A stretch of DNA of 21,054 bases, taken from the IMG/VR virus record IMGVR_UViG_2521172734_000008, positions 1-21,054 of that record; one strand, 5' to 3'. Every line of letters starts with the position of its first letter. Position 1 is the stretch's first letter. This document shows positions 15,001 through 21,000 of the stretch, one piece after another. Source of the DNA: a virus (lineage: Duplodnaviria; Heunggongvirae; Uroviricota; Caudoviricetes). A program made the position numbers.

Positions 15001-18000
15001 AGATGAAGATGAAGATGAAGATGAGGAATAAATATCATGCAATACGATGAATTCCAGGCTGAAGCAACAGCCAATGGTATACGAACTGGCAGTATGACGA
15101 TTGATTATCACGACGCCATACGTCGTCTGGATGCCGGAGAATTCGATACTCCTAATGTGCGAGGTTTACGTATCCTTCAGTGTCTGGCGCAAGCCGACGA
15201 AGCAGGATTACTGGGTAAACTTCCGGTTGAGATGAAGGTTGCTCAGTGGCGATGGTTGTATGTGACGACATTCATCAACGAAGAAGAAGACAAGAACGGC
15301 ACAATTGATATCTTGAATGAACACGGAACAACTGAACACGCCGTGGTATATAACGGGATGTATGGGTTTATGACGATATATCCCGGCCCCATTCGATTTG
15401 CCTTACAACAGTATATTGAATGGAATTTAATTCAAAAATACGGCGAAGCTGAAGGAATGGGAAGAGCGCTGTTTCTTTATCAGAAAATGCTCACTACTTC
15501 CCCTGATAAAGGTTTCATTCTTTCAGATATGGGTCGAGAAGGGCTTGAAATCCTTCTGGATGAAATTATTAACGAAATGAATACTCATGGCATGCAATCC
15601 GAAACAGATATTAAGTAAAAGGGACCACATGACCGTTATCGAGCATATCCAGGAAAATCCAGATTGCAGTAGAGAAGATATATCCCTCGCACTTGGAAGA
15701 AGCGCAACTTCTATCAGTAATGAATTATCACGGTTATTGTGGAATGGGTTAATAGTACGAACTGGAGAAAAAAACAAAATGATTCTGTACTGCGTAAACA
15801 ATCTGCCGTTTGGATACAGCAATCCCCTAAGTGTTATGTTCAACCAGTGATAGTGATGTTCCGACAGGAGAGAGCAGAGAAAGGGGAATCAGCATGAAAT
15901 TTTCCAAATTTTCTGAGTTGGTGAATCGTATTTTGTCCAACAACCACAGCCATCGTCGCGATATGGATGTAACGATCGTTGTTCATTCGCCTGGCAGCAT
16001 TGGTTCAACACCCTCAGTTGAAGTTCAGTCAATTCACGCTGGTTTTGATTGGGATTCCGGGAAAGTGCTGATTTTCCCAGCACAGCCACTGACCACTCTA
16101 ACACCAGAACAGATTACTGATATTACTGATAGTGTGCGCAAAGGTCAGTCCTGGCACGCATATCAGGAATACAAGAAGCATAAAGAGCAGTTGGAAAAAT
16201 TATCGATTGAACTTGATGCCGCAAAACAGCGCATTGCAGAGCTGGAGGGTAATTTCACGGCGCTGGCAGCGGAGAATGCGGGGCTAAAGGCGATATGTGA
16301 TGACCGTCGCAGGTTCATCATGAATGGGGTGCAGATGGGTTATATCAAGGTGCCAGCAGCGGAAACAGATCCAGACCTTGAGACAATTCGCATTGCTATA
16401 TCACCACAAAAGCCCATTCCAGCCACCGATGCTTTCCTGGCTGAAGTACGGGCGCAGGGCGTGGAGATGTTTGCGGAGTGTGCATACACGCTTGAACATC
16501 ATGATCACGCAGTAGCCTTCGCCGCTGAGCTTCGCAAAGGAGGCAACCAGTGAGCAAGATTGACTATCAAGAACTGCGCGAGGCGGCGGAACAGGCAACG
16601 CAAGATGAATGGGTAGCATATATTTTGCCGGGTCATAACGGCATTTATCCTGCGCGCACGTCTGAGGGTAGGCATTGCGGATACTTTATTGACTGGCCTG
16701 GCGTCTGTCAGGGGCGGGAGAGCATCAACATGAGCATCAGAACCTACGCAGTGAATTGCAATGACGCATGGCTAAACACCGAAGGTGATGACATCTCCGG
16801 CTCATACGTTAAGTACAAAGACCATCAGGAAGTGGTTGCCGCTCTTGAGGCCAAGTGCGCGGCGCTGGCAGCGGAGAATGCGGGAATAAAGTCTGCAATT
16901 CCAGAATCACGGGATATTGAAGATGACAATGACAATATGGATGACGTATCTCTCGCGGAAGACTTCGGGTTCAATCATGCAATAGAACGGATGAGGAGAC
17001 AGATACCTGAAACGCCAACCACTGATGCTTTCCTGGCTGAAGTCCGGGCGCAGGGGGTGGATGCTGCTATAGAAGCTGCAAAAAATCTGGTGGCCCAAGA
17101 ATATGAGTATAAGGATTTCAAAGCGGCGCAGAGTGATTGCTGTATGTACCCTGGTTCAGACCTGGTAGGGAAGGTTGAAATGACTGAGTGGTTAGTTGAC
17201 TTTGCTGCCCAGCTTCGCAAAGGAGGCAACCAGTGAGCGAAATTAATTACCAGGCACTGCGTGAGGTGGCGGAACGTGCAATTCCAGCAATGGAACGCCT
17301 GTTAATGTTGCCAGCTGATGATGACTTGTTAAGTGAACAGGAACTTAAAGATTACGGTGTGGATATTGATGCGCTCAACGCCTTCAAATTTCTGACCGGA
17401 CCAGAAACCGTGCTGGCACTGCTGGATGAACGGGAAAGAAACCTGCAATACATCAAAAGCCGCGATCAGGAGAACGAGGATATTGCGCTAACGGTAGGGA
17501 AGCTGCGCGTTGAGCTTGAAGCAGAAAAACAGCGGGCAAAAGTTCTATTTATGGAAAATGCTCGGCTTAAGTCAGGCATAGCCGGTCTGATACACCTCGG
17601 TATTCGATATGCAGATGTTGAGGTCATGAAAATTGCTGGAGATGCCCAGCTTTCTACCCCATGCACTGACAGCATCATAAACAGCATTGCAACAGGCATT
17701 CGCATCAAAGGAGAGTGATATGGCGTTAACACACCACGAACTCTGTCAGATTGCGTACAAGTTCCTTAAGCGCAACGGGTTCAAGGTTTGCTTTCATGAC
17801 CGCTTTGTTGCTGTAACCAGTACCGGAGAACAGCCAGATGCTATGGGATTCAGAAATTCAGCATCATGCCTGATAGAGGCGAAGTGTTCTCGTGCTGACT
17901 TGTTGGCAGATAGAAAAAAGCGTTTCCGTAAAAATCCCTCACTTGGCATGGGCGACTGGCGATTCTTTATTAGTGAGCCGGAAATTATTTCAGTTGAGGA

Positions 18001-21000
18001 TTTACCTCCCGGCTGGGGATTACTTCACGTTGTTAACGGAAGAGTACGGAAAGTACATGGATGGCCCAGGGGTAATTGCTGTTGGGGTAATCCTGACGAT
18101 AAGCCATTTACTGGGAATAAGCAGGTTGAATGCGATTACATGTTATCTGCATTAAGGCGCATGGAGTTGAGAGGGCACCTTAATGAAATATATGACGGTG
18201 TGATTGTTAATAAGAAAGAAGGAAACGCGGCATGATCACTATTACCAAAGGGCGACTGCTGACAATCAAGCAGTGGCGCGAAACATACGGACCGGGTAGC
18301 AACGTTGTGCTTCCAGCAGAAGAAGCGGAAGAGCTGGCACGGATTGCGCTGGCATCACTGGCAGCAGAGCCGGTGGCAAAGATTATAGCTCATTACCCAT
18401 TAGGAGTTGACGCAGGCAAACAAAAATTCGTACAGGCCATTAGAGAGCTTCCTGACTTTGGCGGATATCTATTTGCCGCCCCTCCAGCGCCGATAGTGCC
18501 GGAAGAAATGTATTGGCAGGATGCGCCAGTTGAAGGCAGCAGCAAAGCGGCTGCATACGCTACAGGCTGGAACGATTGCCGCGAAGCCATGCTTCAGTCC
18601 GGAAACTTTCGGGAAAATAAAGATTCGTCAACCAATAATTTTCGGAAAATCCCGGAAGCGTCAACCAGCTCTCCGGTAACTCCGGCTCTTCTGCCTGGTG
18701 GTTTCACCATTGAGGAGGCGAAGGAATTACATGAAGACCTGGTACGCAGCCACATAAGCAAGGCCTTAAGTGGCGAAAAGATGAAAAAGAAAGATCGCGA
18801 TGCTGATTTGCGCTGGATTCATGGCGTTATAGTTCAGGCAGCGTGGTTTGTAAAAGCATCACTGGAGCAGAATGCACTATCGGGCAACTCTCCGGTAACT
18901 CCGGATGGTTGGATAAGCTGTAGTGAGCGAATGCCGGACGACAGGCAGGAGGTGAATCAATGAGCTGGCCTGATGCAATCGTAACTCTGGGGGTGGTATT
19001 CGCAGCAGCGTTTGTTGTGTTCTCGATTTGTCGATGGGGATAACCACATGTTCGCTTTGATTCAACGCGGTCAGATATACACGGACAGAGCCGGATACCC
19101 CGTGGTGATTACTCGCATCACTGAGCACTCAGTGTTCTTTCGACGGATGGACGGACGATCCGGGCGGGTACGCATTGGTGAGTTAAACTGCCTGTTCGAA
19201 CATATTGACCACCAGGAGTACCGCAAAATTCTCGCGGACACTGAGCAGGAAAAGCACCTGAAAAAATTACGAGCCATAAAAAGGAAGTAAAGAATGAATA
19301 AAGCATTTGAACGATGGGTCCACCAGCGTTACGGCAATCGCTATGACCTGACGCGAGATGTTGACGGCTTCCACTGTCGTGAAGTTGTGAAGCGAATGTT
19401 TGAAGTGTGGTGCCACTGCCGTGGGCTGAGTGTTGTGTGAGGTAATACATGGGCAATGTGATTCAACTGGCTCCCAATGAATGGGTTTGTGAAAGCGTTC
19501 TTATCGCAATTACCGGGCTCAAACCAGGCACAATTCTTCGGGCCCGGAAAGAATGCTGGATGGTTGGAAGAGAGTATATTCACGTATCACCAGACGGTAA
19601 TCCAAAGCCTTCCAGTGAATGTATGTATAACAGAAAAGCAATAGATGCCTGGGTCGCCTCAATGAAAAACAAACAACCCAGGTGATTTAATATCATGAAA
19701 TATGTAAGCTCGTATCGCTCTTGGGCGTCTGGAGGTATCGATGGATAAAGTCAAATATCCAACAGGCGTCGAAAACCACGGCGGCACATTACGCATCTGG
19801 TTTAATTTTAAAGGTAAACGTGTCAGGGAAAATCTTGGTGTCCCTGACACTGCCAAGAACAGGAAGATCGCCGGGGAACTGCGGACATCAGTATGTTTTG
19901 CCATCCGCACAGGAAGCTTTGATTATGCTGCACAGTTCCCTGACTCCCCCAACCTTCAGGCTTTTGGGGTAAGTAAAAAAGAAATTACGGTGAAGGAACT
20001 TGAAGAAAAGTGGCTGGATCTGAAACGAATGGAAATCTCTGCAAATGCATTCAATCGCTATGAATCCGTTGCAAGAACGATGGTTCCGAAAATTGGAGGC
20101 AGTAGACTGGTATCATCGGTAACCAAAGAGGAATTGCTGTATATCAGGAAAGATTTGCTTACCGGGTATCAGAATTCAACGAAAAACAAAGCAGCAGCAA
20201 AAGGACGGAGCGTCGTTACTGTAAATTATTACATGACGACAATCGCTGGAATGTTTCAGTTTGCTGCAGATCACGGTTACTTAGAAGCAAATCCCTTCCA
20301 GGGAATTAAGCCTCTTAAAAGAGCCAGGGCAGAGCCAGATCCGCTAACTCGTGACGAATTTATTCGCCTGATAGATGCTTGCCGACATCAGCAGACGAAA
20401 AACCTGTGGTCATTGGCTGTGTACACAGGAATGCGTCACGGTGAACTGGTCTCCCTGGCCTGGGAAGATATCGATCTGAAGGCAGGAACAATTACCATCA
20501 GGCGCAATTATACGAAACTTGGTGAGTTCACTCTACCGAAAACTGAAGCAAGCACAAACAGGGTTGTGCACCTTATCCAGCCCGCTATCAGTGTCCTGAA
20601 AAATCAGGCTGAAATGACAAGACTGGGTAAGCAGTACAACATCAAGGTGCAACTACGTGAATATGGACGTTCAGTGAACCATGAATGTACTTTCGTGTTT
20701 AACCCTCAAGTGGTTAGAAAAAGCGAACAGGTAGGTTTTGTCTACAAAGTCGATTCTGTAGGTGACTCATGGGAAACAGCCATTAAGCGTGCAGGGATCA
20801 GGCATCGAAAGGCATACCAGTCACGACACACTTATGCGTGCTGGTCATTATCTGCCGGAGCAAACCCAAGCTTCATTGCCAGCCAGATGGGCCATGCAAG
20901 TGCCCAGATGGTATTCAATGTATACGGAGCATGGATGACTGACAGCAATGCAGAACAGATCGCAATGCTGAATCAGAAGCTGACAGATTATGTCCCAATG

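Follow-up and report, generated by a model that had tools for sequence, protein, structure and literature searches.

A 27-codon gene in the exo-xis type region of lambdoid Escherichia coli prophages is predicted to encode a single-pass inner-membrane micro-protein

Bacteria encode a number of small single-pass inner-membrane proteins, among them KdpF, MgtS, AcrZ, PmrR, and CydX, that modulate larger membrane proteins. Here we describe a phage-encoded peptide of this size class, specified by a 27-codon open reading frame (the small ORF) in 21,054 nt of Caudoviricetes DNA (IMG/VR record IMGVR_UViG_2521172734_000008, positions 1 to 21,054; hereafter the window). At its end the window runs into the early-left accessory region (exo-xis type) of a lambdoid E. 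coli prophage. In lambdoid and Stx phages the exo-xis region is under-characterised and mosaic, affects prophage induction and toxin release, is implicated in lysis-lysogeny decisions, and has been termed viral dark matter; its Ea22 proteins occur as variants with differing C-terminal domains, one of which is DUF551 (PMC10834534). The original prediction for this locus described the small ORF together with two genes upstream, one for a nuclease-like protein of 171 amino acids (aa) and one for a truncated DUF551-like protein, and pointed to nuclease plus small membrane peptide as a combination seen in abortive-infection modules. We find that the three do not make up a nuclease-plus-toxin defence module but are separate parts of a mosaic prophage region, and that the 27-aa peptide matches no described family and has no description in the literature that we searched.

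The small ORF starts inside the stop of the 243-aa gene before it. Its ATG at 18960 overlaps the TGA at 18961-18963, its own stop codon is at 19041-19043, and the encoded peptide is MSWPDAIVTLGVVFAAAFVVFSICRWG. A GGAGG at 18948-18952, 7 nt before the ATG, confirms the near-consensus Shine-Dalgarno sequence that had been predicted together with the ORF at the upstream stop; the strong expression also predicted is what this sequence would suggest. The Kyte-Doolittle mean of the peptide over 19 residues is 2.63. Among the 108 ATG-initiated ORFs of 20-45 aa in the six frames of the window, no other reaches a 19-residue mean of 2.0, and it is one of only 6 with a Shine-Dalgarno-like 4-mer upstream. 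Divergent members of the family retain values of 2.1-2.75, so that the proposed hydrophobic helix is borne out as a sequence-predicted property of a conserved peptide.

Searching phage genomes with tblastn, we found 70 records with the small ORF. At the eight loci that we inspected, identity of the peptide is 52-100%, its length is 27 residues in every case, and its start always overlaps the upstream stop. The upstream gene may be a truncated or complete DUF551 gene, an Ea22-DUF551 fusion, EaA, the 114-aa gp10 of ArgO145, or L0139 of 933W, and at least four unrelated upstream gene ends are represented. The gene that follows may be DUF4222, hok/sok (933W), a convergent toxin-antitoxin pair (ArgO145), KilA-N (613R10), or others. 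What stays constant is that an exo-xis or nin-region gene has the small ORF at its 3′ end, its stop overlapped by the start of the small ORF. The small ORF and its own Shine-Dalgarno sequence thus travel as an independent mini-module.

A wider sample was drawn from IMG/VR with a degenerate pattern that fixed M, [ST], W, P, [DE], and A, left 17 codons free, and then asked for C, R or S, and W. This gave 128 hits, 126 of which stop exactly after codon 27, a position that the pattern left unconstrained. These 126 loci hold 36 distinct peptides in 54 distinct nucleotide sequences. In nearly all of them GGAGG precedes the ATG by 7-10 nt, the junction being of one of two types (...CAGGAGGTGAATCAATGA or ...GGAGGATATTTTACGATGA). 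Applied to one genome per bacterial species, the pattern found the family in Escherichia and Shigella only, plus two tiny contigs that are probably contamination, their peptides being identical to E. coli phage variants; two chance hits in non-enteric genomes, which act as a negative control, lie in ORFs of 6 and 17 aa. To remove the bias of the pattern, loci were also retrieved with nothing but the upstream 17-mer CAGGAGGTGAATCAATG as query. This gave 128 complete downstream ORFs, of which 126 belong to the 27-residue family, one breaks off at a nonsense codon after MT, and one is a different gene.

In the small ORF the third positions of codons vary most. A minimum spanning tree of the 54 sequences carries 109 synonymous changes for 19.7 sites and 98 non-synonymous ones for 61.3 sites, a ratio of non-synonymous to synonymous change (dN/dS) of ~0.29. 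For the 17 unconstrained codons (7-23) the ratio is 0.43 (binomial p = 2e-7), and in the other two sense frames it is 1.2-1.8. Conservation in homologues, which had been proposed as a check, is therefore high, with 126 of 128 copies intact and dN/dS at ~0.3-0.4, and on this comparative evidence the small ORF is a real 27-codon gene under purifying selection.

The same locus could also be read as a conserved DNA or RNA element, such as a recombination linker, a coupling spacer, or the remnant of a longer gene, with no protein product. Such an element would account for the constant placement at a mosaic junction whose 5′ flank is conserved junction sequence, and it would agree with the lack of expression evidence in the searched literature and with an antisense frame that is open as well. 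It does not account for divergence at third positions with a dN/dS of 0.3-0.4 against 1.2-1.8 in the other sense frames, nor for length, start, stop, and hydrophobicity that are kept down to 52% amino-acid identity. The C-terminal CRWG is retained whichever gene comes next and so is not merely the ribosome-binding site of the downstream gene, and the RNA has no stable fold. The frame is also intact beside complete DUF551 genes and so is not a frameshift remnant; disruption of the frame next to an intact DUF551 domain, which would have pointed to such a remnant, was not what we found. Taken together, we consider a non-coding element quite improbable. A programmed-frameshift fusion of DUF551 to the helix, or a frameshift remnant of one, was likewise rejected: the frame of the small ORF has a stop at 18921-18923, 12 codons upstream, and no slippery heptamer was seen in between.

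Several points weigh against reading the small ORF as a translated membrane-protein gene. Positions 1, 3, 4, 6, 24, and 26 were fixed by the first pattern, and retrieval by the 17-mer shows rare variation there; the sequences are related, and there are fewer independent observations than the counts of distinct peptides suggest. The antisense frame, which shares wobble positions with the sense frame, has a dN/dS of 0.33 and is open in 52 of the 54 variants, so that the selection signal alone does not name the strand. Since the flanks vary between loci, the antisense frame cannot have a conserved start or stop; what favours the sense reading is the conservation of ATG, Shine-Dalgarno sequence, stop, and length, together with the hydrophobic pattern. 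The peptide strings occur in no paper of the searched literature and not in the Sakai intergenic small-gene ribosome profiling (Ribo-seq) supplements, and membrane insertion, topology, and helix packing are all deduced from sequence. The K-12 CPS-53 yfdS (DUF551) region, looked at as a route to Ribo-seq data, does not have the small ORF. A review that models exo-xis proteins mentions no transmembrane or nuclease protein, and the small ORF is absent from the exo-xis literature that we checked.

By blastn, 1104 of 5426 complete E. coli genomes carry the small ORF, with 150 of the matching places on plasmids. Three RefSeq records that we opened have an unannotated gap of 80-90 bp at this place, the feature lists of 40 sampled blastn hits name the flanking genes only, and all eight inspected phage records leave it out; a few GenBank submissions label it 'bacteriophage protein' or 'hypothetical protein'. 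P0132 and related NCBI entries are partial coding sequences at contig edges in the frame of the small ORF (GGESMTWPEAFTTVGIAMAVALVVYSICRWG) that carry the name 'DUF551 domain-containing protein, partial'. Through this misnaming, an annotation artefact, the 27-aa peptide shares clusters with genuine DUF551 proteins in which it is absent. We considered NCBI DUF551-partial entries that start GGESMTWPEAF... as possible fusions and rejected them as apparent contig-edge calls, their cluster mates of 121 and 185 aa being without the peptide.

The small ORF is also found outside temperate exo-xis regions. It follows EaA in the 134-kb Vequintavirinae phage vB_EcoM_TH18 (L004 1501-1584), lies in the nin region of vB_EcoS-613R10 downstream of replication genes (L141 1501-1584), and occurs on ~100-kb P1-like phage-plasmids such as p7_56_38A-1 (L142 ~3016-3099). 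In 933W (L006) it is at 1501-1584 after L0139, ~240 nt upstream of the annotated hokW/sokW (1676-1950). The 'Actinobacillus' phage vB_Apl-pPE4 (L140) has the gene order of 933W, and its local sequence resembles an E. coli lambdoid module.

The gene upstream of the small ORF in the window is ordinary: judged by its sequence, it is a circulating in-frame deletion allele of a known mosaic Ea22/DUF551-type gene. It starts in an ATGA overlap with the stop of the 171-aa gene and ends in DDRQEVNQ. Pfam DUF551 (PF04448) matches its residues 226-241 to profile positions 1-16 of 68 (23.5 bits, cut-off 22); full alleles match positions 1-68. The Stx1 phage AU5Stx1 has a 298-aa version, otherwise ~98% identical, in which WISCSERMP is followed by a complete DUF551 domain up to ...HWMPLPEPPQEVNRG at the stop, and the ~98% nucleotide identity holds up to window position 18936. 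The predicted truncation of a DUF551-like gene is thus well founded, 16 of the 68 profile positions being left. The window allele fuses ERMPDDR straight to the terminal QEVNQ, with the whole DUF551 core lost in frame. The probable junction is at ~18943-18951 (aggCAG|GAGgtg), at a shared GCAG; the deletion may have arisen by microhomology. An exact parent allele was not among the loci sampled. The last five codons are kept, and they carry the Shine-Dalgarno sequence and the stop/start overlap of the small ORF.

This allele is widespread. The truncated end WISCSERMP[D/N]DRQEVNQ is found in 13 loci, one of them with the D-to-N change, on upstream proteins of 170, 247, 252, 263, and 314 aa, and its recurrence on differing upstream proteins marks it as an allele that is established and recombines, not as an error of sequencing. 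A 121-bp query across the deletion junction has matches at ≥99% identity in at least 162 E. coli records. Across the fetched loci the DUF551 genes have near-identical ends (5′ tggataagctgtagtgagcgaatgcc, 3′ ...ccgccgcaggaggtgaatcaatga), and the cores between ERMP and the terminal PPQEVNQ, of 44-61 codons, fall into at least 8 mutually unalignable sequences. This cassette-like pattern suggests either repeated recombination at conserved flanks or strong diversifying selection on the core. At the protein level the ends WISCSERMP... and ...HWMPLPEPPQEVNQ before the stop are encoded by near-identical nucleotides in the window and in loci L003, L007, L013, L014, L020, L046, L070, L072, and L076. AU5Stx1 and Phi24B do not have the small ORF; there the DUF551 gene ends in PPQEVNRG and runs into DUF1382, with the breakpoint right after CCGCAGGAGGT (Phi24B L206 2682-3735, minus strand). 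A Phi24B delta-exo-xis mutant has lower levels of the envelope-stress genes degP and htpX (PMC10789677). We rejected this drop as support for a membrane peptide because Phi24B is without the small ORF.

The 171-codon ORF starts at ATG 17720, two bases past the stop of an Ea22-like gene, and ends at 18235. Its product contains QPD40...IE53AK55, and D40, E53, and K55 are invariant in 36 homologues with identity down to 59%. The same homologues also hold invariant H5, C9, E37, D60, D64, K67, R70, W80-R81, G98-W-G-L-L102, K128-P129, K134-Q135, E137, and R146-R147, and many of the basic residues of the protein are among the invariant ones. An AlphaFold2 model (predicted local distance difference test score 83.9, predicted template modelling score 0.79) orders the elements as alpha(5-18), beta(22-24), beta(41-45), beta(48-54), alpha(58-71), and beta(80-85), the alpha-beta-beta-beta-alpha-beta core of restriction-endonuclease-like proteins. 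D40 directly precedes the second strand (41-45), E53 is within the third (48-54), and K55 comes right after it, which places an acidic residue at the start of beta2 and a (D/E)xK motif in beta3. A fold search with the model finds structural similarity to 3dnx, the solved structure of DUF1052 (PF06319), a family placed in the PD-(D/E)XK superfamily by Steczkiewicz et al. 2012 (PMC3424549). The invariant residues, the modelled fold, and the similarity to 3dnx together bear out the PD...ExK core that had been proposed: the model indicates a PD-(D/E)xK fold of canonical layout with an intact D-ExK centre. The protein is probably a metal-dependent nuclease or a nucleic-acid-binding enzyme, nuclease activity being suggested by the modelled active site.

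By sequence the protein appears as a remote DUF1052/MmcB-like relative that the curated threshold leaves outside the family. It does not reach the gathering threshold of PF06319 (MmcB-like), 22 bits, which speaks against membership, and a distant member of its own family, P0299, scores 17.8 bits against the same cut-off of 22. A profile of the 36 homologues aligns STGEQPDALGFRN-GVSCLIEAKVSRSDFLADRKK to ARGLRVDVMGLGPKGEIWVIECKSSRADFQADAKW of 3dnx at an E-value of 0.44 only. No Pfam (at E <= 0.1), NCBIfam, or PADLOC model matches the 171-aa protein, and nothing significant was found among PDB sequences, so that the fold search alone was informative. PHROGs assigns it to phrog_9263 and phrog_631, groups without an assigned function. 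Homologues are abundant in prophages of Escherichia, Klebsiella, Cronobacter, Serratia, Morganella, Providencia, Salmonella, and others, and a profile search collects 3256 clusters (50% identity) at E <= 1e-3.

Do the nuclease-like protein and the small peptide act together? Combinations of a nuclease with a membrane effector occur among defence systems, and in the window, as in 11 other loci, the two genes lie two genes apart; a two-component abortive-infection or defence module could be drawn from this arrangement. The wider sample largely refutes it. A homologue of the 171-aa protein is present in 12 of the 126 small-ORF loci, and in 11 of the 93 with at least 2 kb of upstream sequence. AU5Stx1 has the 171-aa gene and the DUF551 gene without the small ORF, and Phi24B has the DUF551 gene without it. 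Conversely, E. coli FORC_069 (L144), closely related to the window, has an intact truncated-DUF551 gene and an intact small ORF (2524-2609) beside a 171-aa gene that its annotation marks as a frameshifted pseudogene (1254-1432). Other settings of the peptide are a nin region, a P1-like plasmid, and a Vequintavirinae phage, and the genes apparently belong to a lytic early operon and not to a moron expressed in the lysogen. None of the 7 window proteins matches a PADLOC defence model, and neither a model match nor co-occurrence of components links the locus to known defence or abortive-infection systems. The abortive-infection module of the original prediction does not survive these counts, and we give such a pairing hardly any credence.

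The conserved features of the peptide would fit a different role. Its N-terminal cap is M-[ST]-W-P-[DE]-A, followed by a 17-residue core rich in Ala, Val, and Gly. Within the core G11 hardly varies, and a small residue (A/S) is found without exception at 15 and 22; spaced as i, i+4, and i+11, the three fall on one face of the helix. L or F occupies position 18 and Y or F position 21, and the tail reads I-C-R-W-[GRW]. Conservation is strongest in the C-terminal [YF]SICRWG and weakest in the hydrophobic core. The only charges are D/E5 and R25, from which the positive-inside rule predicts an N-out, C-in topology.

From these features we favour, with some reservation, a reading in which the three genes are independent pieces and the small ORF specifies a single-pass inner-membrane micro-protein that acts by helix packing and not as a partner of the nuclease. 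The gene string that ends in xis and int would be the pL operon, and its early-left promoter would transcribe the small ORF only after infection or induction, leaving it silent in a repressed lysogen. Ribosomes that finish the upstream gene would go on to translate the small ORF through the ATGA overlap, and with such upstream-coupled translation the peptide would be made early after infection or induction. It may then insert into the inner membrane as a single helix of about residues 6-24, with D/E5 outside and R25 inside, and pack against another helix through the small-residue face of G11, A/S15, and S/A22. The conserved interfacial ends WP[DE]A and [YF]SICRWG may also take part in binding, and the partner could be a membrane protein, of the host or of the phage, or a second copy of the peptide. 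More tentatively, the peptides may make up a new family of phage inner-membrane micro-proteins that bind a host membrane protein, for instance to block superinfection, to disarm a membrane defence, or to tune the lysis-lysogeny decision.

A conserved tail behind a variable hydrophobic stretch, in a region implicated in lysis-lysogeny decisions (PMC10834534), might also be expected of a pre-peptide whose hydrophobic part directs export and whose last 4-6 residues ([S]ICRWG) are released as a signal, as with arbitrium AimP. The N-terminus is acidic and not basic: M[ST]WP[DE]A has no basic residue, and the sole one, at the C-terminal end, would keep that end in the cytoplasm by the positive-inside rule. 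Cys24 is preceded by I or V, with no lipobox or signal-peptidase site, and the peptide does not have the features of a lipoprotein or secreted pre-peptide. With no receptor gene nearby and a copy of the ORF in a virulent-type phage, we think a secreted signal most unlikely.

A membrane-damaging toxin that kills the host, of the Kil or type I kind, is the live alternative to the helix-packing micro-protein. On this account the peptide would depolarise or permeabilise the inner membrane once the early operon is switched on. TisB, DinQ, and ShoB are of this size class, and in size and hydrophobicity the peptide resembles them, as the comparison with Hok/TisB-like toxins in the original prediction held. 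The Shine-Dalgarno sequence is strong, the small-xxx-small motifs favour self-association into oligomers, and a toxin would be tolerable if the operon is repressed in the lysogen. Other findings speak against a toxin. Promoter-like and terminator-like sites around the small ORF occur at no higher rate than in shuffled sequence, and the ORF has none directed at it; a consensus scan, which is weak evidence, gives just two promoter-like sites, both on the minus strand, at 18664 and 18265, upstream of the ORF and reading away from it. Rfam has no match within 17400-19800, and the fold of 18900-19100 is not more stable than its shuffles (z = +1.15). Of the hallmarks of a type I toxin-antitoxin system, the locus therefore has the small hydrophobic peptide, and neither an antisense RNA gene with its own promoter nor a highly structured mRNA. 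The peptide falls outside the Hok/Gef family and all Pfam, NCBIfam, and PADLOC families, and 933W has a separate, bona fide hokW/sokW ~240 nt downstream, so the small ORF is not that system. Intact in 98% of copies, it is also present in ~20% of E. coli genomes; many prophages in genomes of this kind are generally defective, and there one might expect a strongly translated toxin to decay. We regard a toxin as unlikely, and yet as a more serious contender than the defence pair, the non-coding linker, or the secreted pre-peptide, all of which are improbable.

A holin-like role, also raised by the original prediction, conflicts with the position of the gene. Holins are encoded in the late lysis cassette next to the endolysin and usually have at least 60 aa, whereas the small ORF has 27 codons and lies in the early-left region between an exo-xis gene and DUF4222, xis, and int.

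The last 7 kb of the window is a single string of co-directional genes on the plus strand, and its features are listed in the table. Against phage records, megablast with 17600-19300 gives 371 matches, mostly Stx-converting and other E. coli and Salmonella lambdoid phages; Escherichia phage PhiR5_1 is the only record that spans all of it, at 98.5% identity. Within 15831-17718 (plus strand) three successive overlapping genes have common modules, the first two with a common C-terminal module '...DAFLAEVRAQGV...LRKGGNQ' up to the stop, and they look like tandem mosaic paralogues. In FORC_069 the integrase lies directly against a DUF72 gene, a possible mark of the integration site. Elsewhere in the window, Rfam matches at gathering level on the minus strand are STnc100 small RNA (2077-2267), three tRNA genes (2348-2590), C4 antisense RNA (10634-10721), and isrK (10746-10822), the last two within or beside Rha/Ash-type regulator genes.

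Table. Features of the window around the small ORF (positions in the window).
Feature	Position	Strand	Remark
CI-like repressor	12425-13156	+	
Gene with shared C-terminal module	15831-16553	+	Module shared with 16550-17236
Ead/Ea22-like gene	16550-17236	+	
Ead/Ea22-like gene	17233-17718	+	
171-aa gene, predicted PD-(D/E)xK-fold protein	17720-18235	+	ATG 17720; invariant D40, E53, K55
243-aa mosaic exo-xis gene (phrog_60 type)	18232-18963	+	C-terminal DUF551 domain lost by in-frame deletion
DUF551 remnant GWISCSERMPDDRQEV	18907-18954	+	Pfam stretch, residues 226-241
Shine-Dalgarno sequence AGGAGGTG of the small ORF	18947-18954	+	Inside the final codons of the 243-aa gene
27-codon gene, predicted single-pass hydrophobic micro-protein	18960-19043	+	ATGA overlap, predicted to be coupled
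DUF4222 gene	19048-19290	+	Pfam E 8e-14; not a constant partner of the small ORF
48-aa gene, Cys/His-rich conserved protein	19294-19440	+	phrog_3871, E 3e-34
DUF1233 excisionase	19449-19685	+	
Integrase	19741 to window end	+	

None of the findings on the small ORF, the 243-aa gene, or the 171-aa protein overturns the current understanding of these phages. If the small ORF does found a family of micro-proteins that bind a host membrane protein, it would be the first membrane component of the poorly understood exo-xis region, carried by ~20% of E. coli genomes and by Stx2 phages such as 933W and VT2-Sakai. A conserved and presumably coupled micro-protein gene in this region of Stx phages is a candidate effector that the inspected RefSeq and phage annotation has missed, and it exemplifies how gene callers overlook phage genes of <30 codons. 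The 171-aa family appears to be a sizeable uncharacterised PD-(D/E)xK branch in Enterobacterales prophages, without a Pfam model.

Each of the three genes can be set beside a described system. The 171-aa family differs from DUF1052/MmcB-like proteins (PF06319; 3dnx, SPO1766) in being ~20 residues longer and in having its own invariant GWGLL, KP, and KQxE motifs; DUF1052 is mostly chromosomal in alpha-proteobacteria (PMC3424549), whereas the 171-aa family is phage-borne in Enterobacterales. Set beside Ea22 with a DUF551 C-terminus (Ea22 V2 of Stx phages; YfdS of CPS-53), the 243-aa gene has the body and the GWISCSERMP domain start of the full-length DUF551 genes of Stx phages, and Ea22 V2-type DUF551 genes occupy the same place in the exo-xis region (PMC10834534); it differs from this variant by the loss of the 44-61-codon DUF551 core and by having no Ead/Ea22 N-terminal domain. 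Like the type I toxins (Hok/Gef, TisB, DinQ, ShoB) and Kil-type proteins, the 27-aa product is a small hydrophobic prophage peptide that, by the layout of the window, would be repressed in the lysogen. Unlike the type I toxin genes, the small ORF has no promoter-like site facing it, no stable mRNA fold, and no family match, and its translation would come from operon coupling where type I toxins have their own tightly controlled mRNA. In kind the peptide resembles KdpF, MgtS, AcrZ, PmrR, and CydX, which share with it the size class (27-49 aa), one hydrophobic helix, short termini, and no enzymatic potential. The peptide differs from them in having no sequence similarity, in being phage-encoded, and in its coupling to an upstream gene, and any likeness in function to these modulators of larger membrane proteins would be by analogy.

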